Notes under the pieces: model-generated
What the model saw: the letters and a program-made list of their open reading frames with translations, nothing else
The model's database searches: none
Told to the model about the DNA's origin: nothing
DNA from: Candidatus Buchananbacteria bacterium
GTDB taxonomy: Bacteria > Patescibacteriota > Patescibacteriia > 2-01-FULL-39-33
DNA: 64,000 bases
Assembly: GCA_030650095.1 (NCBI GenBank)
Contig: JAUSEE010000002.1
Span: 6,711-70,710 of the forward strand
Reading direction: 5' to 3'
Shown here: positions 92 through 35,535 of the stretch, piece by piece
Numbering within the stretch: the stretch's first letter is position 1
Layout: every line of letters starts with the position of its first letter
Position numbers and translations under genes: made by a program

Positions 92-196
92 GGGATGACA
101 ATGAAGAAGAACGTCATTGCGAGGCACGAAGCAATCCCATAGTTGTAGAGTACGAGGTTGCTTCCCCCGCATCAAGTGCGGGGTCGCAATGACAGG
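92..196 (+). repeat. Family-1 nested-palindrome element, copy 1
   Basis: gtcattgcgag...gaagcaatcc...gtacgag gttgcttc...ccccgcatcaagtgcgggg tcgcaatgac: outer 10-bp inverted repeat enclosing two inner hairpins. Confidence 0.7.
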
Positions 197-218
197 AATA
201 AAGAGTTTAGTTGGGATG

Positions 219-1052
219 TTAAACGGCGGCGTCTTTGAGCGAGGCTTTTTTGAGATCTTCGTAAATGCCGCCTTTAATGTTGATTCGGCCAAAAGCCAAA
301 AAGAATAAGCTCAAGGAAGCGTAAAAGAAAAAGTGACTCAAATACATCACCTGGTGAAGCGGAAAATTAAGATTGGACTCTAGAAACTCGTAAAAAATAT
401 ATGGCACAGTCGAGAGCATGATCATAATAATGGAAGCATGCAATAATCTGGTGAAGCCAGTTGAGATGGACACATGTTTGCCAATTCGGTTTATTTTCAT
501 CATGGCTATCAAACCTAGTAAAAAGATTATGGCTGTGTAGACATAAGGTGTTGGATTATCCAATTCCAGCGACATCAATTCTCTTTTGGTTGTTAAGACG
601 AAAATTAAGACAATCAAAGCGGCAATTAAGCCGATCAGAACATTAATCTGAATCAACGATCGTCTATCGTGAACTCTAAGGAAGGCATCAGCGCCGATTA
701 TTATCAGCATCAGGCTTATTAGATAGAAATTGGCGGTATTGATAAGGACAGAATCAGAATAATAGACAAAAGCACCCATGCTCATACTGAAATATTCAAC
801 AATATGCGAAAGGGCAAAAACAAACAGAGCGGCCAAACTGGCCATGAAGAATTTTTCTAGGATGGGATCAAAAGAATAATAGCGGACAAAAATCCTTATT
901 ATAGACAAGGCGATAAACAAAATAGCGATCATATGTATAATTCCGTACATAAAAAACAATTGACCGGTAAGCTCGGCTATGAGGATAACCGCTAAATTGA
1001 TGGCTATGAGTACCAAGGGACTAAAAATTTTTTCAATTTTTTCTTTGTTCAT
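219..1052 (-). CDS. Polytopic integral membrane protein, function unknown
   Basis: 277-aa ORF with ~8 hydrophobic helices; no recognisable catalytic motif. Confidence 0.45.
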   Translation of the reverse strand: MNKEKIEKIFSPLVLIAINLAVILIAELTGQLFFMYGIIHMIAILFIALSIIRIFVRYYSFDPILEKFFMASLAALFVFALSHIVEYFSMSMGAFVYYSDSVLINTANFYLISLMLIIIGADAFLRVHDRRSLIQINVLIGLIAALIVLIFVLTTKRELMSLELDNPTPYVYTAIIFLLGLIAMMKINRIGKHVSISTGFTRLLHASIIMIMLSTVPYIFYEFLESNLNFPLHQVMYLSHFFFYASLSLFFLAFGRINIKGGIYEDLKKASLKDAAV

Positions 1053-1146
1053 ATGATTTATTATTTAATGATTTATTAATTATACCATATTGTTTGGGCA
1101 TTTAAATGGGCTATCAACCAGGGATATTCTGCTGGTTTTTATTTTC

Positions 1147-1229
1147 GTCATTGCGAACGTAGTGAAGCAATCCCATGGCTATAGAATACGAGATTGCTTC
1201 CCCCGCATCAAATGCGGGGTCGCAATGAC
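1147..1229 (+). repeat. Family-1 nested-palindrome element, copy 2
   Basis: gtcattgcga acgtagt gaagcaatc ccatggctatagaatacgag attgcttc ccccgcatcaaatgcgggg tcgcaatgac; same architecture as copy 1. Confidence 0.75.
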
Positions 1230-1300
1230 AAGAATATAACACTTGACAGACATGTTAGAATAATATAACATTAAGATAGTTAGAAATAATTAACAAAAAC

Positions 1301-1687
1301 ATGACCCAAAAACAATACAAAATCTGCAGCTTGGCTATCGTTATAGCTCTAAGCTTTTCCGTCAGCCTTTCTGTCACTTTAAACAATTATTATCTGCCGG
1401 CAATTTTTATTTTGAGCGCAGTGGCGGGCATGTATTACTGTCGCAAACAGCTTAAAACCAATAATGTTTTGGCTGATGAGCGTGATTATCAAATATCCGG
1501 CCAAGCTGCTCGCTATAGCATTTACATCTACAGCTGGCTGGGCGCTATTGGCACATTGGCTTTGATGGCCATATCCGAGAAAGATGGCGTGTTGTATGTT
1601 TTAAGCCAATATTTGGCTTTCAGCGTTTGTTTTCTACTTTTAGTGAATGCTTTTTTGTTTAATTATTTAAGCAAACGAGGCAAGTAA
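1301..1687 (+). CDS. Small membrane protein (DUF2178-like partner of XRE regulator)
   Basis: 128 aa, 3-4 TM helices; its stop abuts the start of the downstream HTH gene (TAATATG), a conserved membrane-protein/XRE pairing. Confidence 0.45.
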
Positions 1688-1688
1688 T

Positions 1689-2001: not shown

Positions 2002-2529
2002 ATGAAGCTTTATGTTAATATTCTATTGGTTTTGGTAATAGCCATAGTTATTGTTAAGTTAATGGTTACACCTCAAACACTTTTTGTCGAAGAAGAAATC
2101 ACCCCGGCATTTGTTCAACAAATGGAGGATGGCTTTAAAAGAACCTATCCGAAGGCCATGGAAGTCGCTTGGGGGACATTGGAAGCTGATGGGCAAAAAA
2201 TTAACTGGTACTCTTATTGGATATCGGGCTACGACCAATTGCAGTTTTTTCTTGATAGTAAGCTCAGTTCAGAAACATGTGCCAAGTTGGAAAAGACAAT
2301 CCAGCGTATCCAACCTCCCTATGAGGAAGATCCTCGCGTCATGCAGTATCGCAGGAAGTCGGTTAACGGCGAGCTGTGGGTGGAATTAGAATCTCCGGCC
2401 ACTTACTTTTATTTTCGTTTCAGCAATCTTGATTTGTTTGATGCTCAGGCAAAACTGGCTTGGGTATTTTTAGAACTATCCAGAGACGGGGTTGTGGATG
2501 ATTACAGCATAGAGAAGCGGTATCTGTAA
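2002..2529 (+). CDS. Hypothetical membrane-anchored protein
   Basis: Start chosen at ATG 2002 (MKLYVNILLV..., preceded by AGGAG); single N-terminal TM, no known motif. Confidence 0.4.
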   Translation: MKLYVNILLVLVIAIVIVKLMVTPQTLFVEEEITPAFVQQMEDGFKRTYPKAMEVAWGTLEADGQKINWYSYWISGYDQLQFFLDSKLSSETCAKLEKTIQRIQPPYEEDPRVMQYRRKSVNGELWVELESPATYFYFRFSNLDLFDAQAKLAWVFLELSRDGVVDDYSIEKRYL

Positions 2530-2574
2530 ATGCCAGAGGTAATCTAAAACAGCCCGAAAAGGAAAGCCAAGATC

Positions 2575-3630
2575 ATGAAACAAAAGCCAGGCTTTACGCT
2601 AGTGGAACTGCTTGTAGTGATTGCCATCATCGGCATTTTGGCGGCGGTTCTCTTGCCGGCTCTGGCGCGAGCGCGTGAGGCGGCCAGGCGTGCCAGTTGC
2701 GCCAGCAATCTTAAGGAGTGGGGACAGATTTTTAAAATGTTTGCCAGCGAAGCGCCAAAAGGAGAACTGCCCAGTATTGGCGGAATTCTTTTTACAGCCT
2801 CGCCCAATGCTTTCCAACTCTACCCTGATTATTGGACGGATGAGAAAATTTTGGCTTGTCCATCGGATAGTTTTTCCTCTCGATTTTTTCATACGCCCGA
2901 TCCTTTGGGCGACATTAACCAAGTGAGGCAATATTGTCCGCCGGGTCCGGCTTTGCCATCAATTATGAGCGTGCCCATTTCCTACTGGTATAGCGGTTTT
3001 GTCATACCAAGCGTTTGGGATTTTATGGGTTATGGTTTGATTATCAGGGATTATATCAGCCGTTTGTCGCCAAGTTTGTTTACAACTTCCAGCGGAACGA
3101 TTGATTTTGTTTATTGTGATCCGGCTATGAGAACTAATTTTGGCAGTATGTGGATCTGGGCCTCAATCGGCATGGATTATGATTTATCCAAATCATCGGT
3201 AGAAGAAAAGGCGAATGGCTATTCGCGCGTGGACTGGGAAGAAGTGGATTACTGGTTGAGCCAAGGGGGCAAGTCCATTAATTCGTGGACATTACCTCGT
3301 TTGCGTGAAGGCATCGAGCGCTTCCTCATTACCGATATCAATAATCCGGCTGCCAGCTCACTGGCACAAAGTTCTATTGATGTTATGTGGGACATTTGGG
3401 GCGATACAGCCGGTTACAAAGAATTGGCGCCCACCGGTCAAAACTTAGGCGGATCTTTCAATCACGTTCCCAGTGGCAGTAATGTTCTTTATTTGGATAG
3501 CCATGTCGAGTACAAGAAATTCAAATCCGGCTACCCTCTGAGCGCCGGGAATATAAACCAAAACGGCACGCTACTGGAGCAAGCCAATTATCTTATGGGA
3601 TTTTACATCGCTACCAGCGCAGCTTGGTGA
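2575..3630 (+). CDS. Prepilin-type N-terminal cleavage/methylation domain protein of DUF1559 (H-X9-DG) type
   Basis: N-term [30 protein letters not shown] (class III signal, G-F-T-L-x-E) followed by [21 protein letters not shown]; C-terminal [11 protein letters not shown] region; GC-rich 5' third. Confidence 0.6.
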
Positions 3631-3685
3631 TCATTTAACTTTAAGTAATGATTAATCGCAAAAATAAATAATTTTTATCCACACC

Positions 3686-3716
3686 AGACAGAGTATAACT
3701 CTGTCTTTTTCAATTT
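3686..3716 (+). terminator. Rho-independent terminator after the DUF1559 gene
   Basis: agacagag tataa ctctgtct followed by ttttcaattttt. Confidence 0.55.
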
Positions 3717-3759
3717 TTGCCCGTATTTTGGGGCGATATTTTTTTATTTCCTACTTATT

Positions 3760-3789
3760 TTGCTGACACTTTTATTTTATGATATTATG
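3760..3789 (+). promoter_or_regulatory. Candidate sigma70 promoter of nrdJ
   Basis: TTGCTG - 17 nt - TATTAT about 35 nt upstream of the nrdJ start. Confidence 0.3.
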
Positions 3790-3821
3790 ATAGAACTTTA
3801 ATAAATAACTTTATAAATATT

Positions 3822-6185
3822 ATGGGGGATAATTCAAATAACTGGCTCGGTTCCGAGGCCAGTGTTTTAGAATCTAATAAAGTTGCCAAAATAAGGAAAA
3901 GAGACGGCCGAATTGTTGATTTTAATAAGGATAAGATAAAACAGGCCATTATTAAGGCCTTTACCGCCTCCAATAATTATGATTATGAACTGGTAGACAG
4001 GCTGGTTGTGAGTGTGGTTAACATTTTAAACAACCGCTACGGGCTAGAAAACATACCTTCTATCGAAGATATCCAGAATATCGTAGAAATCATCCTGATT
4101 CATAACGATCTGCCGGCGGTAGCCAAAAATTACATTATTTACCGTGAAGAAAGATCCAAATCGCGTGAAAGGCAAAAGGCTATTTTAGACGGTTTAACCA
4201 CCAGCTTGCCTTATTCTGATAACGCCCTGAAGGTTATGGCCAAAAGGTATTTAAAAAGGGATCAGGATGACAAAGTTATTGAAACTCCCGAGCAAATGAT
4301 GGAACGGGTATCCCTGGCTTTGGCGGAAGTGGAGAAGAAATACGGCAAAAATGACGAGCAAGTGGCGCGAGTGAAAGACAGTTTTTATGAGGTTTTAAGC
4401 AAATTTGAGTTTACCCCGGCCGGACGAACCCTAAACAACGCCGGCACCGATTTACCGGTGGTGGCCAATTGCATTGTCTTAAATATCCAAGATTCCATGG
4501 ACAGTATTTTTGATACCCTCAAAGACGCCGCTCTTTTACAGCAGTCCGGCTCCGGCTTGGGCTTTCCTTTCCACACCCTAAGGCCGGCCGGTTCTCGGGC
4601 CAAAAAATCACGCGGGGTGGCTTCCGGGCCGGTTTCTTTTCTGAAAGTCTATGATCGGGCCTTTGGCGTGATAAAACAGCAGAATCGCCACGGCGCCAAT
4701 ATGGCAGTGATGAATGTGGAGCATCCGGATATTTTGGAGTTTATCCATTGCAAAGCCCGGGAAGGCGAGATTAAGAATTTTAATATTTCTGTGGGCTTAA
4801 CCGATAGGTTTATGGAAGCGGTGGAAAAAAACGATCCCAACACTTGGGTGCCGCGCTTCAACGGCCAGGATCATTCCTTGCACAGAGTGGTACGCGATGA
4901 GCAGGACACTATTTTGGACATCGTGGAAGAAAAAATGACCGCTCGCGAGATTTTTCAAGAAATCATTTCGGCCGCTTGGTCCAACGGCGAGCCGGGCTGT
5001 GTTTTCTTGGACACGGTGAACAAGGTTAACCCTTTGCCGGGCTTGGGCCGGATAGAAGCCTGCAACCCCTGCGGTGAGCAATTCTTGCACGATGGCGATG
5101 TCTGTAATTTGGGTTCTATTAATTTGGAAAAATTTGCTAGTAGCGGCGAAGTGTTGTGGGACAGATTGAAAGAAGTTACCAAAATAGCCGTGCGCATGCT
5201 GGACAATGTCACCGATATCACTAAGTACCAATCAGAAAAAGTAAATCAGGTTTCCAAAGACAATCGGCGTATCGGCTTGGGCATCATGGGCTTTGCCGAC
5301 ATGCTTTATAAACTGGGCATTGGCTACAACACGCCCGAAGGCTTTGCTATGGGCGAAAAAATAATGAAAACCATCCAGGATTCCTCTCACCAGATGTCTC
5401 AAGAATTAGCCGACGAAAAAGGACTCTTTAAAAATTATAATCATTCCGTTTACCCAGGCAGGAATGTCAGAATGAGAAATGCCGCCCTCACCAATATCGC
5501 CCCGACCGGCACGATTTCCATGACCATGGATGTCTCGGGCGGAGTGGAGCCTTATTTTGCCTTGGCCTATTATTACAAACATGTTTTGGGAGGCGATGTG
5601 GAGCTTATTTATTTCAACAAGCATTTGGAAAAAACCTTAAAGGAACAAGGCTGTTGGTCGGAAACAGTTAAACAGCAAATAATCCAAAACGGCACCCTGC
5701 AGAATGTGGCCGGCATTCCGGAAAATATCAAAAAAATATTCGTTACTTCCATGGATATTTCCGCCTCCGATCATATTAAAATGCAATCGGCGTTCCAAAA
5801 ATATTGCGACAACGCTATTTCTAAAACTGTTAACTTCCCTTATTCGGCCAGCAAAAATGACGTGATGGAAGGCTACCTGATGGCTTGGAGAATGGGTTGC
5901 AAGGGCTGTACTGTTTATCGCGACGGCTCCAGGGACAAGCAAATACTCAATATCGCCAAAGACAAAGAAACCAGCGAACCCTTAAACCCCAACGCCGGTT
6001 TAACCGATGAAATGCCCATGGTTAATACCGGCAATGTGGTTACTTCCGGCTTTAGTCCTCTTAAGCCTAATGATAAAAATGGAGTCATAGCCGGCGGAAT
6101 TTGTCCGGAATGCGGGGGATCGCTTATGATTTTAGAAGGTTGTTATACTTGCTCCAGTTGCGGAGTTAGCGCCTGCTCTATTTAA
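3822..6185 (+). CDS. nrdJ: Adenosylcobalamin-dependent (class II) ribonucleotide reductase with N-terminal ATP-cone and C-terminal Zn-ribbon
   Basis: ATP-cone VAKIRKRDGRIVDFNKDKIKQAI; RNR core with active-site Cys in CNLGSINL and a second conserved Cys in EACNPCGEQ; C-terminal CPECGG...CYTCSSCG. Confidence 0.9.
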   Translation: MGDNSNNWLGSEASVLESNKVAKIRKRDGRIVDFNKDKIKQAIIKAFTASNNYDYELVDRLVVSVVNILNNRYGLENIPSIEDIQNIVEIILIHNDLPAVAKNYIIYREERSKSRERQKAILDGLTTSLPYSDNALKVMAKRYLKRDQDDKVIETPEQMMERVSLALAEVEKKYGKNDEQVARVKDSFYEVLSKFEFTPAGRTLNNAGTDLPVVANCIVLNIQDSMDSIFDTLKDAALLQQSGSGLGFPFHTLRPAGSRAKKSRGVASGPVSFLKVYDRAFGVIKQQNRHGANMAVMNVEHPDILEFIHCKAREGEIKNFNISVGLTDRFMEAVEKNDPNTWVPRFNGQDHSLHRVVRDEQDTILDIVEEKMTAREIFQEIISAAWSNGEPGCVFLDTVNKVNPLPGLGRIEACNPCGEQFLHDGDVCNLGSINLEKFASSGEVLWDRLKEVTKIAVRMLDNVTDITKYQSEKVNQVSKDNRRIGLGIMGFADMLYKLGIGYNTPEGFAMGEKIMKTIQDSSHQMSQELADEKGLFKNYNHSVYPGRNVRMRNAALTNIAPTGTISMTMDVSGGVEPYFALAYYYKHVLGGDVELIYFNKHLEKTLKEQGCWSETVKQQIIQNGTLQNVAGIPENIKKIFVTSMDISASDHIKMQSAFQKYCDNAISKTVNFPYSASKNDVMEGYLMAWRMGCKGCTVYRDGSRDKQILNIAKDKETSEPLNPNAGLTDEMPMVNTGNVVTSGFSPLKPNDKNGVIAGGICPECGGSLMILEGCYTCSSCGVSACSI

Positions 6186-6196
6186 GTGTCACTTTG

Positions 6197-6268
6197 ATCC
6201 GCCCTGGGCGGAGAAGCAATCTCGTGTTTGATATTTGTCATTCCGACCGCAGTGGAGGAATCCCTTGG
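6197..6268 (+). repeat. Family-1 element, degenerate copy 3
   Basis: gatccgccctgggcgga gaagcaatc ... tgtcattccgaccgcagtggaggaatccc; shares 'tccgccctgggcggagaagcaatc' with the copy at 10220. Confidence 0.45.
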
Positions 6269-6299
6269 TAAAATAAAATAAATCCAGTCTATTAAAATA

Positions 6300-6480
6300 A
6301 AACACCCTTTTCTTTTTCTAGGAAAAAGAAAAGCGGTGCCAAAAGAAAAAGTCGCGAGCTGGTTAAAAATTAAGGCAAAATTTCAGCTCGCTCACTAAAG
6401 CCAATAATCCAAATAGCAACATAATATTGGCTTTTTAACGCTCGCTAAACTGAAATTTTGACACTAAATTTTTAAAGGCT
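6300..6480 (+). repeat. Conserved ~170-nt module A (structured-RNA candidate) downstream of family-1 copy 3
   Basis: Perfect 12-bp hairpin cttttctttttc-tag-gaaaaagaaaag (6307-6333) then a block homologous to 35596-35760 (agctcgct..aaagcYaataatcMaaatagcaacaKaatattRgctTtttaacRctcgct...). Confidence 0.55.
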
Positions 6481-6510
6481 CGCATTATTTTATATTAGAT
6501 TATTAATACT

Positions 6511-7026
6511 ATGATCCAAGTTTATTATGGCGATGGTAAAGGCAAAACCACGGCGGCCCTGGGATTATCCATAAGAGCTTTAGGTAGCGGCCAGAAAGTA
6601 GCCATTATCTTTTTTGACAAAGGGGGCCAGAATTATAACGAAAGGAAGATATTGGATAATCTGGGCATCGCTTATTTTTCCTATGGCCGAGACAGGCGTC
6701 TGTCTAATAACCGGTTTGATTTTTCACTTAAAGACGAAGATTTGGCGATGGCGCAAAAATCCATGGCCCAGCTTCTTAAAATACACCATGATTACGACTT
6801 GATTGTTTTAGACGAAGTTTTAAACGCCATCAGGCTGAAGATGATGCCGCTTCAAGAATTGTTGGATTATTTGGACAATAAATTGCCGCCCAATTTAGAA
6901 CTGGTTTTAACCGGCCGCGGCTTGTGGCCGGAAATAAGTGAAAGGGCCGATTTGATTTCTGAAATGAAAATGATCAAGCATTATTTTCAAAAAAAATTGC
7001 CGGCCCGAGAGGGGATAGAATACTAA
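6511..7026 (+). CDS. cobO: Cob(I)alamin adenosyltransferase, CobA/CobO/BtuR family
   Basis: P-loop VYYGDGKGKTTAALGLSIRALG diagnostic of CobA_CobO_BtuR; 171 aa. Confidence 0.8.
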   Translation: MIQVYYGDGKGKTTAALGLSIRALGSGQKVAIIFFDKGGQNYNERKILDNLGIAYFSYGRDRRLSNNRFDFSLKDEDLAMAQKSMAQLLKIHHDYDLIVLDEVLNAIRLKMMPLQELLDYLDNKLPPNLELVLTGRGLWPEISERADLISEMKMIKHYFQKKLPAREGIEY

Positions 7027-7123
7027 TCAGCTAAAAACAGTCTGCCAGAAGCGGATTGTTTTTTATTATTGTGTGTTTTCTGGACAGGAGTATAATAACA
7101 GTAATAGTTTTCCTTAGTGTTAT

Positions 7124-9043
7124 ATGGCTGGAAAAGTATCTAAAAACAGGCACTTATCAAACAATCCTAACAAGGCCGAAGTTTTTAAGTTGATTGAAAA
7201 AGAAAGGGATCATGTTTTTAATTTGATCAGTGACATTATTATTGTCGCCGATGCCAAAACTGGCATGTTAGTGGACGCTAATTTGGCCGCTCAAAAATTT
7301 TTGGGCAAAACTCTAAGCCAAATAAGGAAAATGCACCAGTCTCAGCTTCATAATAGAGCAGACCGGGCTAAATATCGTGAATCATTCAGGCAAATTGTTA
7401 AAACAGGAGGTGTCCAGGAAGATGTTTATATCTTAAATAAAAACCGAGAGCCAGTTCCTACTGATGTCAGCGCCGGTTTCATTAAAACTGGCGGGCGTGA
7501 TTATATCCAAGGAGTTTTTAGGGATGTCAGCCGCCGGAAGAAAATAGAAGAAGAATTAATCGGGCAAAAGATTAAATTTGAAACCATCTTTGATCTGTCG
7601 CCCAATTTTATTATTTATAAAAGCCAGGATGACAAATTTTTGGAAGTCAATAAAGCCTTTGTTGATTTTATCGGCCTGCCCAAAGAAAAGATTATCGGCC
7701 AATCAACCTTTGATATGATTCTAGACCAAGAGGTGGCCCAAAAAACCAGACAAGACGATTTGGAAGTTATGAAAACGGGCCGGCCAAAATTTGGCGTGAT
7801 TAGGAAATTTACCAGCCCGTTTAGCCAAAAGAGCATCTGGGGCATGTATTCTAAAGAAGCGTTTTTAGATGCCGATGGCAAGGTAATAGGCATTTTATCG
7901 GTTACCGCTGATATTACCAAGATGGTAGAATCAGAAAAAGAAATTGAACTGCAAAAAGATTTGGCTTTTGAAAGATCAGAAAAGTTGCAGGCCATTTTAG
8001 AGAATATCGGTGACTTCGTTTTTGTGATTGATCACAATTATAAAATTACCATGGTTAATAAATCAGCCTGCCAACTAGTTGGTTGTTCCTATAATCAAGC
8101 TATAGGCAAATACTATGGCGATTTTTTTAAATTTGTCTATGAGAAAAATCAGCAAGTTAATGACCAGTTTATAAAAAATGCTTTAGAAAAAGGGGTAGTG
8201 GCATCAGTGGCCAACCACACCGTTTTAATTACCAAAGACAATAAAGCCATGCCGGTTGATTTTGTGGCTTCGCCTATTAAAGATGAAAATGGCCAAATAA
8301 CCGGCGCCGTGGTTGTTTTTAGGGATATAACCAGGGAAAGAAACATAGATAGAATGAAAACAGAATTCGTTTCCATTGCTTCCCACCAGCTTAGAACGCC
8401 CTTAACCGGCATCAAATGGTTTTTGGAATTGCTATTGGATCAAAAAATAGGCGCTTTAAATGAAAAACAACTGGATTTTCTAAACCAAGTGGCGCAAAGC
8501 AACGAAAGAATGATATCGCTCGTGAGTGATCTTTTAAGCGTGTCCAGGATTGAAACAGGAGGAAAAAAGTTTGAAATCGTCAAAAGAAATATCAATATTA
8601 TCCCGGTGATCAAGAGCATTATTATGGATAATATTGTTTTAACCAAAGAGAAAAATATAAAAATAACTGGTTGTATTTATAAATTGTCCAAAATAATGAT
8701 TTTTGCCGATCCCGAACATATCAGGCAAGCCTTTCAAAACTTAATCACCAATGCCATAAAATATTCCAATAATAATGGCGTCATTGAAATTAATTGCCAA
8801 TATAAGAATAAAGAAATAATATTTTTTATCAAAGATAAAGGCGTGGGCATACCGCCAGATCAGCAAAAAAGGGTTTTTGAAAAATTTTTCCGGGCGGACA
8901 ATATTATTACTAAAGAAACCAGCGGCACCGGTTTGGGCCTTTATATCGCTAAAGCCATAATTGACGGCCATGGCGGCCGGATTTGGTTTAAGTCTAAAGA
9001 AGGCAAGGGCACGACCTTTTATTTCTCTATTCCCAAGAAATGA
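7124..9043 (+). CDS. Cytoplasmic multi-PAS sensor histidine kinase
   Basis: PAS-like repeats, H-box SHQLRTPLTGIKWFLELL, C-terminal HATPase_c (GTGLGLYIAKAII). Confidence 0.85.
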   Translation: MAGKVSKNRHLSNNPNKAEVFKLIEKERDHVFNLISDIIIVADAKTGMLVDANLAAQKFLGKTLSQIRKMHQSQLHNRADRAKYRESFRQIVKTGGVQEDVYILNKNREPVPTDVSAGFIKTGGRDYIQGVFRDVSRRKKIEEELIGQKIKFETIFDLSPNFIIYKSQDDKFLEVNKAFVDFIGLPKEKIIGQSTFDMILDQEVAQKTRQDDLEVMKTGRPKFGVIRKFTSPFSQKSIWGMYSKEAFLDADGKVIGILSVTADITKMVESEKEIELQKDLAFERSEKLQAILENIGDFVFVIDHNYKITMVNKSACQLVGCSYNQAIGKYYGDFFKFVYEKNQQVNDQFIKNALEKGVVASVANHTVLITKDNKAMPVDFVASPIKDENGQITGAVVVFRDITRERNIDRMKTEFVSIASHQLRTPLTGIKWFLELLLDQKIGALNEKQLDFLNQVAQSNERMISLVSDLLSVSRIETGGKKFEIVKRNINIIPVIKSIIMDNIVLTKEKNIKITGCIYKLSKIMIFADPEHIRQAFQNLITNAIKYSNNNGVIEINCQYKNKEIIFFIKDKGVGIPPDQQKRVFEKFFRADNIITKETSGTGLGLYIAKAIIDGHGGRIWFKSKEGKGTTFYFSIPKK

Positions 9044-9072
9044 TATTTAGAATAGTTGTAGATAATAAAAAT

Positions 9073-9216
9073 GTCATTGCGAGCCTGCCTGTCGGTAGAC
9101 AGGCTTGCGAAGCAATCCCACGGCTGTAGGATACGAGATTGCTTCTCCGCCTTCGCGAGGACTCGCTTGAGCTTCCTCGCAATGACAAGAATAAAGAGCT
9201 CATTCACAATGACATT
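9073..9216 (+). repeat. Family-1 nested-palindrome element, copy 4 (extended)
   Basis: gtcattgcgag + extra hairpin cctgcctgtcggtagacaggc + gaagcaatcc..gatacgag attgcttc ... ctcgcaatgac, then a second ...caatgaca. Confidence 0.75.
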
Positions 9217-9224
9217 TAGAAAAT

Positions 9225-9524
9225 ATGACTAAATATTATTATATTTATATTCTAACCAATAAACATAATAGAGTATTATATATAGGTGTAACCAATAATT
9301 TAATCAAAAGAGTTTGGGAGCATAAAAATAAAATAAATAACAATTCATCTTTTACTAGAAGATATAATATTGATAAATTAGTCTATTATGAATAGAGTGA
9401 ATCAGTCCATAATGCTATTGCTAGAGAAAAACAGTTAAAAGGAGGATCTAGAAAACAAAAGGTAGATTTGATAAATACTTTAAATCCGGAGTGGAAAGAT
9501 CTTTATATAGAAATGACAAAATAG
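9225..9524 (+). pseudogene. Small GIY-YIG nuclease family gene with an in-frame TAG (nonsense-disrupted)
   Basis: Frame translation MTKYYYIYILTNKHNRVLYIGVTNNLIKRVWEHKNKINNNSSFTRRYNIDKLVYYE*SESVHNAIAREKQLKGGSRKQKVDLINTLNPEWKDLYIEMTK; GIY...YIG...R...E...N layout of the short COG2827-type proteins; TAG at 9393-9395. Confidence 0.7.
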
Positions 9525-9544
9525 TGCCATTATTAGGCCTTACT

Positions 9545-9643
9545 GTCATTGCGAGCCTGCCTGTCGGCAGACAGGCTTGTGAAGCAATCCTATGGTTGTA
9601 GGATACGAGATTGCTTCGGTCGCTGTGGCTCCCTCGCAATGAC
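9545..9643 (+). repeat. Family-1 nested-palindrome element, copy 5
   Basis: gtcattgcgag cctgcctgtcggcagacaggcttgt gaagcaatcc tatggttgtaggatacgag attgcttc ggtcgctgtggctcc ctcgcaatgac. Confidence 0.75.
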
Positions 9644-9672
9644 AAGTAGAATCACTATAAATAGCAAAAGTC

Positions 9673-9718
9673 GTCATTGCGAGCCTGCCTGTCGGCAGAC
9701 AGGCTTGTGAAGCAATCC
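9673..9718 (+). repeat. Family-1 element, 5' half only (copy 6)
   Basis: Identical to the first 46 nt of copy 5, truncated 27 nt before the receiver gene start. Confidence 0.65.
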
Positions 9719-9744
9719 ATATTTATTAATTAAAATATAACATC

Positions 9745-10113
9745 ATGAAGAAAAAGATATTAATAGTGGAAGATGACAATTTTTTACAAAAAGCCCTGGG
9801 GCATGCCTTGTTAGAGAATGATTTCGATATTATTTCGGCTGTAAGCGGCGAGCAAGCAGTTCCCTTGGCTAAAAACGCTAAACCGGATTTGATTCTACTG
9901 GATATAATTTTGCCCAAAAAAGACGGTTTCGTGATAATGGAGGAATTAAAAAATGATTCGGCCATAGCTTCCATACCGGTAATATTTATCACTAATCTGG
10001 GGCAGAAGGAGGATGTTAAAAAAGGCTTGGATTTGGGAGCAAAAGGTTATATTATCAAAGCTCATTTTAAGATAGCTGATATTATTGATAAGATAAATGA
10101 AGTTTTAAAATAA
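9745..10113 (+). CDS. Single-domain response regulator (receiver only, CheY-like)
   Basis: ILIVEDD...LILLDIILPKKDGF...KGYIIK; no output domain. Confidence 0.85.
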   Translation: MKKKILIVEDDNFLQKALGHALLENDFDIISAVSGEQAVPLAKNAKPDLILLDIILPKKDGFVIMEELKNDSAIASIPVIFITNLGQKEDVKKGLDLGAKGYIIKAHFKIADIIDKINEVLK

Positions 10114-10130
10114 TAATCACATAATCATAA

Positions 10131-10250
10131 AATACGAGATTGCTTCGTTGCACTTTGTTTCGCTCGCAATGACAAGGATATAGAACTCCCTCGCAATGAC
10201 AGGAAAGAACGTCATTGCGATCCGCCCTGGGCGGAGAAGCAATCCCATGG
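10131..10250 (+). repeat. Family-1 element fragments (3' half + 5' half, rearranged; copy 7)
   Basis: aatacgag attgcttc ... ctcgcaatgac ... ctcgcaatgac ... gtcattgcga tccgccctgggcgga gaagcaatccc. Confidence 0.6.
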
Positions 10251-10286
10251 TTATAAAGCACTTACTATTAATGCAATTATAAGTAT

Positions 10287-10661
10287 ATGAAAAAAATTTT
10301 AGTCATAGAAGACGACAATATACTGCAAAGCGCTATCTCTACTGCTCTAAAAGATGCCGGTTTTAGCACGGTTCAATCTTTTGACGGCGTAGACGGATTA
10401 AAAAAAGCCAAGAAAAACAATATCAATTTAATTTTATTGGATTTACTTATGCCCAAAAAAGACGGCTGGGAAGTTTTAAAAATGCTTAAAAAAGATAATA
10501 AAACCAAGAATATTCCGGTTTTTGTCTTAACAGTTTATGAGGGCGAGAACAGCATTTCTAAGTGTTTGTCTTTGGGCGCCAAAGGTTATTTTATCAAATC
10601 AAAATATTCGCTGGATGAAATAATAAAAAATATAAAAAATGAAATTGGCAAGGCTAAATAA
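10287..10661 (+). CDS. Single-domain response regulator (receiver only)
   Basis: ILVIEDDN...LILLDLLMPKKDGW...KGYFIK. Confidence 0.85.
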   Translation: MKKILVIEDDNILQSAISTALKDAGFSTVQSFDGVDGLKKAKKNNINLILLDLLMPKKDGWEVLKMLKKDNKTKNIPVFVLTVYEGENSISKCLSLGAKGYFIKSKYSLDEIIKNIKNEIGKAK

Positions 10662-10671
10662 ATAATCAGAT

Positions 10672-10706
10672 AATAAGACGGCTTAGACTAGCCGTCTTAT
10701 TTAATA
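10672..10706 (+). terminator. Rho-independent terminator
   Basis: taagacggct taga ctagccgtctta followed by tttaatatt. Confidence 0.55.
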
Positions 10707-10808
10707 TTAGCTGTTTGGTTTATTTTTTAAATAAGTGTTATAATAATAAAAGAACATAACAAAAATTGCATAATAAAAATTAGAAATTAATTAAATATTT
10801 GTTTTAAT

Positions 10809-13684: not shown

Positions 13685-13711
13685 AATAAAATACAAAATA
13701 ATAACAAGTTT

Positions 13712-14092
13712 ATGGCCAAGAAAAAATCATACAAAATCCTGGTAGTGGAAGATGAACCGGCTCTCCAGCAAACATTGGGGGATAAAATCAAACGCGAGGG
13801 TTGGGAGTATATCCCATCTTTAAACGGCGAAGAGGGCTTAAGGACGATTAAGAAATCACAGCCTGATTTGATTATTTTGGATTTGCTTATGCCCAAAATG
13901 AGCGGATTGGAGATGTTAAAAGAAGTGCGAAAAATTTATGATAAGCAGGATTTGCCGGTGATAATTTTGACTAATTACAGCGAAGGCCAGAATGTCAGCG
14001 AAGCCATAGCTTTGGGAGCTGATATTTTCCTAGTTAAAGCCAATTATTCCCTGGAAGAAATTATTGAAAAGATAAGAGAGGTTTTGGATTAA
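13712..14092 (+). CDS. Single-domain response regulator (receiver only)
   Basis: ILVVEDEPAL...LIILDLLMPKMSGLE. Confidence 0.85.
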   Translation: MAKKKSYKILVVEDEPALQQTLGDKIKREGWEYIPSLNGEEGLRTIKKSQPDLIILDLLMPKMSGLEMLKEVRKIYDKQDLPVIILTNYSEGQNVSEAIALGADIFLVKANYSLEEIIEKIREVLD

Positions 14093-14113
14093 ATAATAAT
14101 ATCTACATCAGAA

Positions 14114-14506: not shown

Positions 14507-14603
14507 CAAAAAAGAAGGGGGGATAGCGCTGGTAGCTATTTTTATGTTATAATTAAAAAGCATATTTGTATGCTTAATTTTAGAAAGTAAATAAAAATAG
14601 ATT

Positions 14604-14999: not shown

Positions 15000-15058
15000 T
15001 ACCTATGCCACTAAGCGCGGATAAGGAGGAAAAAAAGCCCAGCGTAAAAGGAAACAAG

Positions 15059-32931: not shown

Positions 32932-32933
32932 AT

Positions 32934-35021
32934 ATGGTAAACCTAGTTATTTTAATCATTAATTTAATCTCCACCGCCTTTGTTTATTTTGGCCTGCAGC
33001 TTGGTTGGTTGATTAGTTTTAATATTATTTTTTTCTTAGCCTGGCTTTTTTCTTTGAATATTTTTTCGGCTTTGATTTTATCAAAAATTTTTTCTTTACC
33101 AAAAATTTATTTAAAAATATTAAGCCTTTTTTTAGATATCGTACTTCTTGGTTTCATAGCCAATATCTCTACCAGTTGGCTGGTCTTTAATAATCTGTCA
33201 TTTCTAATTTCACTGATGGCAACCAGCCTGATTTTATTCCTCTGGTCTTACGGCTTAAGGAATATAAAACCACTGCCTCAAACTTATTTAGGCAAAAACG
33301 AAGGCTTATGGGATTTTAAGAGCTGGCTTCTTATTGTATTTTCAGTTTTGACTAGTGCTGGTTTTATCGTAATATTTTTAGTTCAAACTAGTGCCTATCT
33401 TTCGAGTCCTTGGCAGGTTTTGCCTTTTTGGTATGCCCTTATAATTTTAATTTTGTTACTTTTTGTTTTTTCTTTGGTTTTTTCCAAAAAAAAGGTTTGG
33501 TTGATCTTGACTTCAATTATTATCATCTCCTTCCTAATGCATTCGTATTTATTGGTTTATAGCCAAGGCTTTGGTGGTGATAAATGGAGGCACTTGGGCT
33601 CGGAAAACAGGATACTTTCGGAACTTGCTTATCAACCCACTCTCTTGGCCAATGATATTTGGTACAAGAATATCGGCGGTCTAAATTTGCCCCAAGCTTT
33701 GATAGCCGGTCCCAAAATTTCTTATGGCTTTGAGTGGTCTTTGGCCGTTACTATAGCCAAAATATTTCAAATTGATATTTTCATTTTAGACAAGTATCTT
33801 ATATTAATATTATGGTCTTTATTTTTGCCGCTGATGGCTTTTATTCTAGCTCTTCAGTTAAAAGTTAAAAATAGATACGCCCTTTTGGCTTCGGCTTTGA
33901 CTTTGATTTTTTATATCTTGCAATATTATGGCAGTCAAACACTCCCTATAAGCTTTTCCGCTTTGTATTTTTTATTTTTAATCAGTTGTTTTTTGTCTTA
34001 TGTGAATAATAAGCAAAGCGGTATTTTGTTATTTTTAATATTTTTGACCGCCCTGTCTTATTTTGGCTATTCCTTGGCTTTTATTATTTTGATTTTGTCT
34101 TTGATTTGGTCTCTAGCTGTCAGCTTAAAGCCGCTTAAAAAATACCTTATTTTTTTTGCCTCCAGCCTGTCTATTTTTATAATTGAGCTAGTGTCTGACT
34201 TCTCTAGCTTAAAGAGCCAATTTTCTCTAAGAGAAATTATCGGTGCCGCCTTGGTAAGGGGCAACTTTTTATTTTTTGAAAAAGGGCAATTTTTACCCCT
34301 GGCTTTAAAATATTGGCCGATTTTATCTCTGATTATCAGTTTACTTTTGGGCGGTGTTTTAATAGCTTCAATTTTAAAAATGTTAAAAGAAAAAAAACCG
34401 ACCCACTTGTTTTTGGTGGGTTTGGGTTTTATTTTGATTATAAATTATTTGTGTTCTTGGATTTTTTTAGACGGCCTTCATACTTTAGCCAGGAGAATGA
34501 ACGTCTTTATAGTCTTGGTTTTTATTTTTGTATTAGCTTATGGCTTATCTTGTTTTGTAAGTCATAAGAATAAAGCTGTCTTGGCGGTTTTAATATTAAG
34601 TCTGGTTGGTTTTTTGACTTATTCCTCCGGCCCGATTTTGGAAGCGGCTGTAAGCGGTGACGACACTTTGTCCATGAAATATGTTTGGAGCCAAGTTTAT
34701 GGTGAGCCGAAGAAATATTGCGTTTTAGCCAATAGCTGGCCGCTTCTGGCCTTGGAATCTTATTCTGCCAAAGAAATAATAGCCGGAAATTTTCCGAGTG
34801 ATTTTAATTATAGCCAGCCGGAGCGGGTTAATTTGCTAGCCGATTTCATTAAAAAACCGTCGCTGAGCCTACTGGACGAAGCCATGATTGTTACTGGCAC
34901 AAGTTCATGCTTTATAGTTATTAACTATAATTCGTTAAATGATGTGATGATTTATCAAATTAATAATCTACTGGGACAACCAAAAATATTCGGTCAAAAT
35001 TTAGTTTGGCGATATAAATAA
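32934..35021 (+). CDS. Large polytopic membrane protein (possible glycosyl/oligosaccharyl-transferase-like), function unknown
   Basis: 695 aa with >12 hydrophobic helices; no catalytic motif recognised. Confidence 0.4.
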   Translation: MVNLVILIINLISTAFVYFGLQLGWLISFNIIFFLAWLFSLNIFSALILSKIFSLPKIYLKILSLFLDIVLLGFIANISTSWLVFNNLSFLISLMATSLILFLWSYGLRNIKPLPQTYLGKNEGLWDFKSWLLIVFSVLTSAGFIVIFLVQTSAYLSSPWQVLPFWYALIILILLLFVFSLVFSKKKVWLILTSIIIISFLMHSYLLVYSQGFGGDKWRHLGSENRILSELAYQPTLLANDIWYKNIGGLNLPQALIAGPKISYGFEWSLAVTIAKIFQIDIFILDKYLILILWSLFLPLMAFILALQLKVKNRYALLASALTLIFYILQYYGSQTLPISFSALYFLFLISCFLSYVNNKQSGILLFLIFLTALSYFGYSLAFIILILSLIWSLAVSLKPLKKYLIFFASSLSIFIIELVSDFSSLKSQFSLREIIGAALVRGNFLFFEKGQFLPLALKYWPILSLIISLLLGGVLIASILKMLKEKKPTHLFLVGLGFILIINYLCSWIFLDGLHTLARRMNVFIVLVFIFVLAYGLSCFVSHKNKAVLAVLILSLVGFLTYSSGPILEAAVSGDDTLSMKYVWSQVYGEPKKYCVLANSWPLLALESYSAKEIIAGNFPSDFNYSQPERVNLLADFIKKPSLSLLDEAMIVTGTSSCFIVINYNSLNDVMIYQINNLLGQPKIFGQNLVWRYK

Positions 35022-35034
35022 TAAATATAATAAT

Positions 35035-35442
35035 ATGGATGATTGTATTTTTTGCAAGATTATAAAAGGGGAGATACCAAGTTATAAAGTTTACGAAAAC
35101 GGAGATGTCTTGGCTTTTTTGGATATTACGCCGGTTAATTCCGGCCACACTTTGGTTATTTCTAAAAACCATTATGATAACCTTATTGATTTGCCGGAAG
35201 AGGAGGCTGGTAAGTTGATCAATGTTATCAAAAAAATAACTCCGGCGATAGTAAAGGCTACCGAAGCTGATGGCTTTAATTTGAATCTTAATAATGGTTC
35301 GGCGGCCGGACAGGTTATAAATCATGTGCATTTCCATATCGTGCCCAGGAAAAATAATGATGGTTACAAGCTTTGGCCCGGCCATGTTTACCCAGCCGGT
35401 GAAGCCGAGATTGTTTTAGAAAAAATCAAGAGTAATTTGTAG
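35035..35442 (+). CDS. HIT-family (histidine triad) nucleotide hydrolase
   Basis: HVHFHIVPR histidine triad; ends with a TAG stop. Confidence 0.8.
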   Translation: MDDCIFCKIIKGEIPSYKVYENGDVLAFLDITPVNSGHTLVISKNHYDNLIDLPEEEAGKLINVIKKITPAIVKATEADGFNLNLNNGSAAGQVINHVHFHIVPRKNNDGYKLWPGHVYPAGEAEIVLEKIKSNL

Positions 35443-35468
35443 TTTGTTTTTAAATTATTTTTATTTTT

Positions 35469-35535
35469 GTCATTGCGAGGGACGAAGCAATCCCAGGCGA
35501 TATAAACATAAGATTGCTTCGTACCTCGCAATGAC
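35469..35535 (+). repeat. Family-1 nested-palindrome element, minimal copy 8
   Basis: gtcattgcgag ggac gaagcaatcc caggcgatataaacataag attgcttc gta cctcgcaatgac. Confidence 0.7.

Follow-up and report, generated by a model that had tools for sequence, protein, structure and literature searches.

Nested palindromes in a Candidatus Buchananbacteria genome are probable Ssn-type hairpin repeats accompanying a GIY-YIG nuclease pseudogene

The nested palindromes dispersed through a 64,000-nucleotide stretch (the window) of a Candidatus Buchananbacteria metagenome-assembled genome (Patescibacteria, CPR) are very probably Ssn-related motifs (SRMs), oriented hairpin repeats that serve as recognition sites for a small GIY-YIG nuclease with one domain. 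Ssn is a family of small single-stranded-DNA nucleases described in 2025, of which Neisseria SsnA has been examined both in vitro and in vivo (Chenal et al., Nat Commun, PMC11893778).

Results

A dispersed family built from oriented hairpin units

The copies are a real, structured, dispersed family. A preliminary description of this DNA listed copies at eight positions, and the described sequences are present at all eight. Allowing up to one mismatch, GTCATTGCGA occurs 16 times on the two strands of the window against 3.2 expected, a count that none of 100 shuffled windows reached. Every unit and remnant is intergenic, as had been stated.

The basic element is half of a palindrome, a single hairpin unit comprising: a YGTC head; a closing stem ATTGC/GCAAT that encloses GAG, a variable apex and GAA; a C; and a tail. 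A full nested palindrome consists of two units in inverted order with their tails inward and abutting. Each outer arm is therefore a head together with half of a closing stem, each inner arm is the other half of that stem, and the loop is formed by both tails. DNA folding gives hairpins closed by ATTGC/GCAAT with a variable apex, which in the wider family is most commonly a GCGNAGC mini-hairpin. The variable apex agrees with the published tolerance of Ssn repeats to loop changes and extensions (PMC11893778). Taken alone, the short-insert units 113-136, 1147-1172 and 35469-35492 fold at the shuffled level (z about -0.1 to -0.3).

The presumed cargo hairpins are no passengers; they are the variable apical part of each unit's own hairpin. 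Half-copies had been taken for products of cleavage and recombination; the half is itself the basic unit, while 9673-9717 and 10211-10244 do represent truncated pairs. The window holds five full nested palindromes (pairs 1, 2, 4, 5 and 8) besides single units, degenerate units and head-only remnants:

90-99, minus strand: degenerate head remnant GTCATCCCGA, two mismatches to GTCATTGCGA; 13 nt from the head of the next unit, a head-to-head junction like that at 10191-10220
113-193, both strands: full inverted pair 1; plus unit 113-136 with tail CCCATAG, minus unit 156-193 with apical hairpin CCCCGCATCAAGTGCGGGG and tail CTCGTAC (TACGAG on the plus strand); DNA fold -23.7 kcal/mol, z = -6.4
1147-1229, both strands: full inverted pair 2; plus unit 1147-1172, minus unit 1192-1229 with tail CTCGTATTC; families D19 and D20; in a divergent promoter region
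6188-6226, plus strand: degenerate unit with head GTCACTTTGA, apical hairpin TCCGCCCTGGGCGGA (that of unit 10211-10244), GAAGCAATC and tail TCGTG; begins 3 nt past the ribonucleotide reductase stop codon
6237-6262, plus strand: second-type degenerate unit with closing stem ATTCC/GGAAT instead of ATTGC/GCAAT, changed on both sides with pairing kept; an independent Logan contig starts exactly at 6237
9073-9186, both strands: full inverted pair 4 (family D17); plus unit 9073-9117 with apical hairpin CCTGCCTGTCGGTAGACAGG, minus unit 9137-9186; DNA fold -30.8 kcal/mol, z = -5.2 (left unit alone, z = -3.2)
9204-9213, minus strand: degenerate remnant of a head alone, GTCATTGTGA; the ssn start codon follows 11 nt downstream
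9225-9524, plus strand: ssn pseudogene, single-domain GIY-YIG nuclease, 99 codons (Pfam PF01541, E = 6e-15)
9545-9643, both strands: full inverted pair 5; plus unit 9545-9589, minus unit 9609-9643
9673-9717, plus strand: single left-type unit identical to the left unit of pair 5 (family D17); its tail ends after CC, followed by RR1; a Logan contig starts inside it, at 9689
9745-10113, plus strand: response-regulator gene RR1 (Pfam PF00072)
10138-10173, minus strand: single right-type unit (family D20), 10124-10173 with its tail and part of the former loop; TACGAG at 10133-10138 on the plus strand; starts directly past the RR1 stop codon
10191-10200, minus strand: head-only copy, 27 nt from the preceding head and 10 nt from the next plus-strand head
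10211-10244, plus strand: single left-type unit with apical hairpin TCCGCCCTGGGCGGA; keeps most of a loop (CCCATGGTTATAAAG), without a partner unit; DNA fold -9.4 kcal/mol, z = -2.1
35469-35535, both strands: full inverted pair 8, close to symmetric; inserts short (GGAC, GTAC), TACGAG tail absent; its 25-nt arms (inverted repeat I20) are 96% complementary; a Logan contig ends inside it, at 35485

Units also enclose RR1, the plus unit 9673-9717 on one side and the minus unit 10138-10173 on the other, which gives a repeat-gene-repeat arrangement. RR1 adjoins the repeat family without belonging to it, and at only 36-45% identity to its five paralogues it is no recent duplicate.

The (g/a)TACGAG motif is present in five copies, as first described, and is absent from 35469-35535; it corresponds to the 3' tail of the minus-strand unit. 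Its conservation stands, but the accompanying view that the rest of the loop varies does not: across the four full TACGAG copies, 32 nt including the loop (family D20) are about 85-90% identical. Similarly, the statement that all copies lie on the plus strand applies to pair polarity only, as each full copy has one unit per strand. All five TACGAG copies carry the CCYAYRG-tailed unit on the plus strand and the CTCGTAT-tailed unit on the minus strand, although this shared polarity has little statistical weight because three of the five lie in one 1.2-kb cluster. Orientation relative to transcription, previously described as uniform, is not, since copy 113-193 is downstream of and antisense to the minus-strand gene 219-1052.

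These placements bear on a role at the RNA level in the two-component gene cluster. Processing sites or small RNAs had initially been considered equally possible, and terminators or elements that stabilise the mRNA are further conceivable forms of such a role. The pairs would give very stable transcript stems, copies lie between co-oriented genes at 9-10.3 kb, and in other bacteria REP-type hairpins are known to make the mRNA upstream of them more stable (background in PMC12306157). Against this, the elements match no Rfam family, either at gathering thresholds or at E<=1, and no T-run was seen after the stems. Units occur on both strands; one pair is antisense to its nearest gene and another occupies a divergent promoter region. 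Further, the same arms adjoin unrelated genes in more than 10 phyla and in viral contigs, and SsnA shows no binding to its repeat in RNA form (PMC11893778). An RNA-level role is accordingly very improbable, though a side effect of the repeats on transcripts may still occur.

A GIY-YIG gene accompanies the repeats

The ssn gene is situated between pairs 9073-9186 and 9545-9643, that is, between the heads of two inverted pairs. Its product shares 41% identity with the SsnA homologue of N. gonorrhoeae (E = 1e-24), and Y, Y and E are conserved at the positions of Nm Y6, Y17 and E64. The gene is interrupted at 9393-9395 by an in-frame TAG, at a position occupied by Tyr in the closest homologues; an independent Logan contig has the same TAG. 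The product is 80% identical to the intact homologue P0001. With this pseudogene and several truncated or degenerate units, the Ssn system in the window appears to be decaying. An intact ssn copy may exist elsewhere in the genome. The preliminary description had missed this gene, which is key to the repeat family.

Homologues of the window protein (53-80% identity) occur in more than 10 phyla. In 80 genome loci selected solely by the GIY-YIG protein, the outer motif lies within 300 nt upstream of the gene in 72 and within 300 nt downstream in 72. Motif density is 10.6/kb within 100 nt of the gene, compared with 0.23-0.31/kb beyond 1 kb and 0.06/kb by chance. In some homologues the repeat is translated within over-called N- or C-termini. 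The gene-repeat association thus holds across phyla.

Repeat type and nuclease orthologue also change in concert. The ATTGCGAG...GAAGCAAT repeat type goes with proteins that share at least 53% identity with that of the window, and the N. gonorrhoeae, A. lipoferum, S. meliloti and N. aromaticivorans homologues are flanked by their own species' CGTC-type hairpin. Among repeat-bearing viral contigs, only 1 of 120 has the gene; repeats therefore persist widely without a nearby nuclease.

Discussion

Proposed mechanism

The mechanism proposed here is transferred from the homologous Neisseria SsnA (Chenal et al. 2025). In DNA that is single-stranded during replication, repair or uptake, the strand with the forward unit would fold into a hairpin, which the nuclease would bind sequence-specifically. 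The C directly after the stem would be critical for binding and the GTC directly before it for cutting, which is expected to fall a few nucleotides from the head on its 5' side. The enzyme would act neither on double-stranded DNA or RNA nor on the reverse strand. The cognate gene would be 9225-9524, which in this window is inactivated by its nonsense codon.

Across 632 units, the G, T and C before the stem have conservation values of 0.9-1.0 and the C after it about 0.9; these best-conserved positions are those that SsnA requires. In Ssn/NTS, the bases flanking the palindrome decide binding and cutting, and keeping the hairpin while changing its sequence abolishes activity (PMC11893778). These results, from a homologous system, bear out the suggestion that TACGAG pointed to sequence-specific recognition. 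By analogy, this nuclease clade probably cuts this repeat variant.

Origin and spread of the copies

Unit lengths are bimodal: solo pairs span 60-140 nt and gene-bearing units 360-560 nt. Near P0001, the closest intact gene, the loop of the solo pairs reads as two pieces of the gene-bearing copy joined together: the first bases following its upstream unit and the 8 bases that precede its downstream unit. This suggests that solo pairs arise from gene-bearing units by internal deletion. The earlier label MITE-like is apt insofar as solo palindromes look like gene-less derivatives of a ~0.4-kb nuclease-gene unit. No target-site duplication of 2-8 nt, at any offset, was found in 159 pairs; the palindrome ends one base outside GTC.

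Copies could in principle be classical MITEs, moved by a DDE transposase in trans, or REP/REPINs that depend on a RAYT tyrosine transposase. Such elements would fit the small size, the terminal inverted repeats and the clustered intergenic placement, and REPINs are also inverted REP pairs. The duplication result argues against them, as do a YGTC rather than GTAG head, the absence of transposase family matches in the 18 window ORFs scanned, and a tightly linked gene that encodes a GIY-YIG nuclease. Di Nocera et al. (PMC3733652) found no transposase gene flanked by CGTC repeats. Neither a classical MITE nor a RAYT-type REP is supported, and such an origin is barely credible. Copies presumably multiply by a single-stranded-DNA-based route, IS200/IS605-like, or by recombination.

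In A. lipoferum 4B, a repeat-gene-repeat block lies between sufB and sufC. It is absent from four other inspected Azospirillum replicons, and alignment spans suggest its absence from seven more; the block was gained in one Azospirillum lineage. Such an insertion would also be expected if repeat-ssn-repeat were an autonomous selfish mobile element, with the nuclease as transposase, solo pairs as non-autonomous copies and no host function such as transformation control. This is possible, though we consider it the less probable account. Chenal et al. remarked on the IS-like architecture (PMC11893778), and the compact 360-560 nt units have inverted ends. The protein's spread over many phyla at 53-80% identity, mostly on very short contigs, the solo loops resembling deletion junctions, and the pseudogene and decayed units of the window point the same way. 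The heads of adjacent pairs face each other across 7-12 nt, with no closer spacing seen; insertion of new copies at a set distance from a head already present would give this pattern. However, GIY-YIG domains are not known to carry out strand transfer, cutting is the only activity demonstrated for SsnA, and comparison of the Azospirillum replicons yielded no clean empty site whose boundaries were exact. In the window and in 17 of the 80 loci the gene is placed between heads, where predicted cuts would bracket the gene alone. The Neisseria system, moreover, has a measured host-level effect on transformation (PMC11893778). The selfish-element proposal concerns the purpose and spread of the system, not its identity.

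Relation to known systems

The assignment to Ssn/SRM rests on shared features (PMC11893778): a GIY-YIG protein consisting of one domain, ~95 aa long, whose catalytic residues agree; oriented hairpin repeats on both gene flanks; GTC directly before an AT-first stem and C directly after it; a freely variable loop or apex; and many intergenic, clustered repeats able to surround host genes. The window differs in its Patescibacteria (CPR) host, in having a pseudogene, and in a protein that shares only 41% identity with the Neisseria homologue of the enzyme assayed. In its units a 5-bp stem (ATTGC/GCAAT) leads into GAG/GAA and then a variable apex, 4 to ~60 nt long, whereas the published SRM form has a continuous 8-9-bp stem and a 4-5-nt loop.

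The copies had also been described as not REP. As characterised by Di Nocera, De Gregorio and Rocco (BMC Genomics 2013, PMC3733652), however, CGTC-tagged REPs, which comprise four families in that paper and include Neisseria dRS3 and Rickettsia RPE-4 and RPE-6, share with our units an unpaired CGTC/TGTC head, an AT-first stem, a short C-rich tail, intergenic placement, a habit of forming mostly inverted pairs able to fold into a larger hairpin, and the absence of an associated transposase gene. The window copies differ in the dimensions of stem and loop. Di Nocera et al. concluded that there is no dedicated enzyme; in the present case, as in Chenal et al., a GIY-YIG nuclease is that enzyme.

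Other systems are more distant. REP/REPIN-RAYT systems (REPtrons) and IS200/IS605 share hairpin repeats recognised as single-stranded DNA, inverted pairs, an enzyme gene flanked by its own repeats and no target-site duplication. They differ in using an HUH/Y1 transposase rather than a GIY-YIG nuclease and a GTAG rather than YGTC head. Bacterial MITEs are likewise short, gene-less inverted-repeat copies more numerous than their gene-bearing parent; here there is no target-site duplication and, among the 18 ORFs scanned, no DDE transposase, and the arms are themselves hairpin units. Integron attC sites are imperfect nested palindromes recognised as folded single strands, and genes may lie between them. 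The window elements, in contrast, lack R''/L''-type core sites, no integrase is present among the 18 ORFs scanned, and the repeat sequence is conserved across phyla, whereas in attC only structure is conserved.

The published pattern HGTCWYN(0-2)YYVSBRHN(0-5)WNVSBRGN(0-2)RNCYNB matches no unit in the window and, near the homologues, none of the 80 loci; by the operational definition of Chenal et al., these repeats are not SRMs. The window locus is nonetheless a further example of the known Ssn/SRM system, and it adds a repeat variant that escapes the published SRM search pattern.

Units and pairs in the window

Every full copy of the palindrome in the window is composed of two units in inverted order: oriented hairpins whose tails point inward. 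Read 5' to 3', each unit comprises: a YGTC head; ATTGC; GA(G); a variable insert; GAA; GCAAT; a C; and a tail. The sequences claimed for eight positions in the preliminary description are present there when read directly from the window, and all copies are intergenic, as it had stated. Searching both strands of the window with up to one mismatch located the 10-mer GTCATTGCGA 16 times against 3.2 expected, a count reached in no shuffle; the inner 9-mer GAAGCAATC was found, exact, together with it.

Repeat units and remnants in the window
113-136, plus strand, unit
1147-1172, plus strand, unit
9073-9117, plus strand, unit
9545-9589, plus strand, unit
9673-9717, plus strand, unit
10211-10244, plus strand, unit
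35469-35492, plus strand, unit
156-193, minus strand, unit
1192-1229, minus strand, unit
9137-9186, minus strand, unit
9609-9643, minus strand, unit
10138-10173, minus strand, unit
35512-35535, minus strand, unit
6188-6226, degenerate unit
6237-6262, unit with an ATTCC/GGAAT stem, both sides changed
90-99, head-only remnant
9204-9213, head-only remnant
10191-10200, head-only remnant

In DNA folds, an ATTGC/GCAAT closing stem encloses an apical hairpin in each unit whose insert is long (z -2 to -4). Units whose insert is short fold weakly when taken singly; the stability of entire pairs is very high (z -5 to -6). Because the folds show these closing stems around the apical hairpin, the "cargo hairpins" previously placed between the stems each belong to a unit's own hairpin, of which they form the apical part. 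The apparent loop of a pair is the meeting of two 3' tails: the plus-strand unit contributes CCYAYRG and the minus-strand unit CTCGTAT, which on the plus strand is read as TACGAG.

An independent assembly of run SRR13727527 contains three contigs identical to the window, and these end at or within units (6237, 9574, 9689 and 35485). For genome annotation, the point to retain is that units of this repeat break short-read assemblies.

The inverted order and irregular spacing of the units bear out the earlier statement that they are not CRISPR; an array of that kind requires direct repeats with spacers of constant length. An RNA-level role had also been proposed, from an apparent single orientation of the copies. 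This is not supported: units occur on both strands, at non-uniform positions relative to genes; Rfam gave no match at the elements, either at gathering thresholds or at E<=1; and RNA is not bound by the enzyme family discussed below (PMC11893778).

A disrupted ssn gene lies between two pairs

A plus-strand ORF (9225-9524; 99 codons, with one in-frame TAG at 9393-9395) lies between the copies at 9073-9216 and 9545-9643. Its sole match is to PF01541 (residues 4-79, E = 6e-15), which gives it a single GIY-YIG domain; no NCBIfam model scored above cut-off for the protein. The Ssn (ssDNA nuclease) family is the cd10448 clade of GIY-YIG, and its defining protein has ~94 aa and one domain. A BLASTP alignment of the window protein with the N. 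gonorrhoeae homologue covers 91 aa at 41% identity (E = 1e-24); the homology threshold used for Ssn by Chenal et al. was tblastn E<1e-10 (PMC11893778). Y6, Y17 and E64, the mutagenised catalytic residues of Neisseria SsnA, correspond in the alignment to Y8, Y19 and E68 of the window protein. The window gene, with its in-frame TAG, is not the intact, expressed gene expected of the Ssn family. The same TAG is present in the SRR13727527 assembly, and the two closest homologues retrieved carry Tyr at its position.

A database search returned 5185 homologues of the window protein at E<=1e-5, from many phyla. Most have 94-103 aa, and many lie on very short contigs. Some are over-called, with N- or C-terminal extensions that are translated repeat (e.g. 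MSLRGAQRRSNP...RDCF...SRSRND). Such spurious extensions recur in gene calls and constitute an annotation pitfall. The fold of the family is already documented, the nearest solved relative by sequence being 1ZG2.

The biochemistry of the family comes from Chenal et al. (Nat Commun 2025; PMC11893778). SsnA of N. meningitidis, a 94-aa single-domain GIY-YIG protein, binds NTS (CGTCATTCCCGCGMAVGCGGGAATCYRG), its hairpin repeat, solely in single-stranded DNA form and cuts a few nucleotides 5' of it; the enzyme is inactive on dsDNA, RNA and the reverse strand. Within NTS, the three bases before the stem control cutting, the C after the stem controls binding, and the loop is dispensable in its identity and tolerates extension. 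SsnA homologues of three other species cleave their own repeats; site-specific cleavage restricted to ssDNA is thus demonstrated for four homologues, all outside the clade of the window protein. In the same study, Ssn-related motifs (SRMs, the repeats of the family) were found near 71% of homologue genes, the system lowered transformation of Neisseria by repeat-carrying DNA, and the repeat-gene-repeat architecture was likened to an insertion sequence.

The positions important to SsnA are the most conserved ones among 632 units: G, T and C before the stem stand at 0.9-1.0 each, and the C after GCAAT at ~0.9. Of 415 distinct units, 203 have T and 177 have C directly before GTC, and the window copies have one or the other. 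The stem begins with AT and has 5 canonical base pairs only, followed in the modal form by GAG/GAA and a GC-GNA-GC apex. This GCGNAGC mini-hairpin is near the GCGMAVGC of NTS; the apical hairpins in the window are longer. The natural variability of the apex agrees with the published loop tolerance of SsnA. Tails differ among the 415 distinct units (CCAG in 73, CCCC in 49, CCCA in 29, and others), CTCG, the TACGAG type, being a minority in the wider family (16/415). The TACGAG tail nonetheless recurs on 73 metagenome contigs of varied composition, and left arms reading GAAGCAATCTCGT were seen in several phyla. TACGAG therefore belongs to the unit, which it extends, and is no independent motif of the loop.

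Gene and repeat are associated across phyla

The association was measured in 80 loci, one genome per species, picked by protein alone at 53-66% identity to the window protein. These came from Chloroflexota, Cyanobacteria, Patescibacteria, Bacteroidota, Ignavibacteria, Proteobacteria, Elusimicrobiota, Nitrospirota, WOR-3 and others. The outer motif occurs <=300 nt upstream of the gene in 72/80 loci, and <=300 nt downstream in 72/80. Motif density is 10.6 per kb <=100 nt from the gene, 0.23-0.31 per kb >1 kb away, and 0.06 per kb by chance.

Two layouts predominate. The commonest, at 36 loci, has the gene inside one pair, between its tails. Spacing in these is tight: the upstream unit is typically ~40 nt or less from the start codon, and the stop codon precedes the downstream unit by 0-25 nt, sometimes touching it. 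The second layout, at 17 loci, has a complete pair on either side of the gene, which is bounded by their heads; the window gene, flanked on both sides (repeats at 9073-9213 upstream and 9545-9643 downstream), is of this kind. The distribution of pair lengths is bimodal, with 60-140 nt for pairs lacking a gene and 360-560 nt for those with one, and by geometry there are 126 adjacent left-unit/right-unit pairs with a gap <=60 nt.

Among 120 viral contigs selected by the repeat, the gene is found on one only, and non-adjacent; all that this sample shows is the persistence of repeats where no gene is close by. One 10-kb viral contig (L071; IMG/VR IMGVR_UViG_3300035498_002011) carries seven single units at 2397-10279, all on one strand and each followed by a CCCCCTCAATGTAAGTACGGAG-like conserved stretch; there is no nuclease gene on this contig.

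Relationship to described repeats

The feature is a member of the Ssn/SRM system already described. The likeness lies in the GTC before the stem and the C after it, which orient the repeat, and in the placement of repeats on both sides of the ssn gene. Three elements set it apart from the published description: the host, a Candidatus Buchananbacteria (Patescibacteria) MAG, recognised through exact matches of its proteins, and hence a genome of the Candidate Phyla Radiation; the state of ssn, here a pseudogene; and a widespread repeat variant outside the published motif. The SRM search pattern, HGTCWYN(0-2)YYVSBRHN(0-5)WNVSBRGN(0-2)RNCYNB, was derived from 29 genomes of 4 phyla (PMC11893778). 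It has 0 matches in the window and matched 0/80 loci <=300 nt from the gene; Neisseria and Azospirillum loci, the positive control, were matched. The pattern misses window-type units because the stems differ: continuous over 8-9 bp in the SRM of Chenal et al., and here 5 canonical pairs, GAG/GAA, and an apex of 4 to ~60 nt. As the variant is invisible to the published pattern, pattern-based surveys undercount the family.

The preliminary description had also set the elements apart from REPs. This part did not hold: the units have the head of CGTC-tagged REPs, an AT-first stem, a C-rich tail and the habit of forming inverted pairs. In Di Nocera et al. 2013 (PMC3733652), such REPs are defined by an unpaired CGTC (or TGTC/CCTC) head, an 8-9-bp stem starting with AT, a 4-5-nt loop, a short tail of consensus CCA and units mostly in inverted pairs; the window copies differ in stem and loop dimensions. 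That study treats Neisseria dRS3 as well as Rickettsia RPE-4 and RPE-6 as such REPs, and states that they "apparently lack a dedicated transposase". A tblastn search of plasmid records with a homologue gave matches in several of the host taxa named by Di Nocera et al., and the hairpins around the gene were inspected in four species.

Hairpins flanking ssn homologues in four species
N. gonorrhoeae: CGTCATTCCCGCGCAGGCGGGAATCTAG, on both sides of the gene
A. lipoferum 4B: CGTCATCCCCGCGAAGGCGGGGATCCAG, in pairs on both sides of the gene
S. meliloti: CCTCATCCCTGTGCTCGTCACAGGGATCCAG, in pairs on both sides of the gene
N. aromaticivorans: CCGTCGCCCCGTGCTTGACACGGGGCTTGG, then the gene, then an inverted copy; gene inside one pair

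Each inspected species has its own CGTC-type hairpin at its ssn, and the repeat type therefore changes with the nuclease orthologue. The N. gonorrhoeae record (L202, NZ_CP119140.1; 2.17 Mb) is tagged as a plasmid in PLSDB and is evidently a chromosome; its ssn homologue is unannotated. Literature searches with the literal arm sequences returned unrelated primers only, and those tying GIY-YIG to palindromic repeats, MITEs or RAYT returned nothing relevant apart from the dRS3 link.

From the earlier interpretation, sequence-specific recognition and a MITE-like character are retained. A classical MITE of a DDE transposon, or a RAYT-type REP/REPIN, is not supported. Among 159 pairs, target-site duplications of 2-8 nt at offsets 0-3 were none of them clearly above the random rate; the head is YGTC, not the GTAG of RAYT-type REPs; and no transposase or integrase family was matched by Pfam among the 18 window ORFs scanned.

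Repeats around RR1

Through the CC after the stem, the 9673-9717 plus-strand unit has exactly the sequence of the left unit in the 9545-9643 pair; RR1, a response-regulator gene (9745-10113), follows it. After RR1 come the right part of a loop and then a minus-strand unit (10124-10173). This arrangement matches the "repeat-gene-repeat" configuration of Neisseria (PMC11893778). Among all loci, 32 enclosed segments of 150-3000 nt were found; ~27 are the nuclease gene, and RR1 is the only clean small non-nuclease gene. RR1 is 36-45% identical to its five paralogues, marking it as an old paralogue, and a recent capture or duplication is therefore not indicated. The surrounding cluster (9745-15415, plus strand) comprises six single-domain response-regulator genes around two PAS histidine-kinase genes; the six regulators are 29-45% identical to one another, and palindromic units flank the first two only.

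Origin and spread of the copies

It is possible, if on balance doubtful, that repeat-ssn-repeat units (ATTGCGAG...GAAGCAAT type) are autonomous mobile elements of ~0.4 kb that use an ssDNA route, a 95-aa GIY-YIG nuclease replacing the transposase. Such a mechanism would involve: deletion derivatives of these units, which would be the solo pairs (pairs without a gene inside); arrival of new copies at a set distance, of a few nucleotides, from a head already in place, which would generate clusters; and enclosure of host genes by pairs, RR1 being a candidate case.

Several arrangements bear on this proposal. At the closest intact homologue of the window gene (P0001, 80% identical), the gene lies between the tails of one pair, with solo pairs around it. 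In the gene-bearing copy, the opening bases past the upstream unit and the final eight ahead of the downstream unit, run together, give CCCATGGAAAATACACGAG, the loop of the solo pairs. Since this loop is the two ends of the gene-bearing copy joined, we infer that solo pairs look like internal-deletion derivatives. In A. lipoferum 4B, a ~520-nt block (pair, gene, pair) sits between sufB and sufC and is absent from four other Azospirillum replicons inspected by sequence; alignment spans suggest its absence from seven more. The exact boundaries of the block are blurred, the intergenic flanks having diverged.

Adjacent pairs, over all loci, have heads that face each other, separated by a spacer that is never <7 nt and is 7-12 nt in 53 of ~110. 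In the window, head-to-head junctions occur at 90-122 and 10191-10220, with a head also at 184-193. Periods of 27-29 nt are among those at which head-only copies are repeated. The palindrome itself extends one base beyond GTC. We infer only that the spacer and period patterns would be compatible with copies being inserted or rejoined at a constant, short interval from the head, the location at which SsnA cuts. The minimum head-to-head spacing may reflect the cut position of the nuclease. The pseudogene and decayed units in the window lean towards a selfish rather than a domesticated system.

Other features of the window

A terminator-like hairpin with a T-run (14-45, plus strand; GCCGCTCGGGTAATAACTGGGCGGTTTTTTT) lies directly 5' of the first palindrome; no T-runs follow the palindromes themselves in the window copies. 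A second repeat family (6290-6420 and 35545-35671, plus strand) lies directly downstream of two palindromes. Its hairpins are perfect but differ between copies (CTTTTCTTTTTC..GAAAAAGAAAAG versus GTTACTTTTGG..CCAAAAGTAAC) and are followed by an A-rich stretch, STCGCGA and a conserved 26-mer, CTAAAGCYAATAATCMAAATAGCAAC (two window copies, 0 expected). This family has no Rfam match and no exact match among the viral contigs. A third repeat, of ~110-143 nt with GC-rich hairpins (TACCCCGCTCTTTAGAGCGGGGT), has three copies: 43067-43209, which is inverted relative to the others and 95% complementary to each; 45826-45968; and 48125-48235. These bracket peptidase, FTR1 iron permease, hemerythrin and aminotransferase genes, and no transposase was associated with them among the ORFs scanned. 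Finally, one 3190-aa ORF (16254-25826, plus strand) contains many diverged ~330-nt modules within ~2013-nt blocks, with 60-80% identity between copies at the DNA level.

Implications

To our knowledge, Ssn members are the only known site-specific nucleases exclusive to single-stranded DNA, and each nuclease-repeat pair might give ssDNA tools a new specificity. Homologues of the nuclease described here number in the thousands and span >10 phyla, making this pair very widespread; it is also present in the Candidate Phyla Radiation, for whose lifestyle DNA uptake is considered central.

The findings also bear on a question that Chenal et al. left: whether the system is domesticated or still mobile. 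The relevant anatomy is: a gene inside or between pairs; solo pairs with the look of deletions; no target duplications; and a minimum spacing of 7 nt. If repeat-ssn-repeat units are mobile elements, they would constitute a new class of bacterial transposable element, and their nuclease would supply the "missing enzyme" of CGTC-type REPs.
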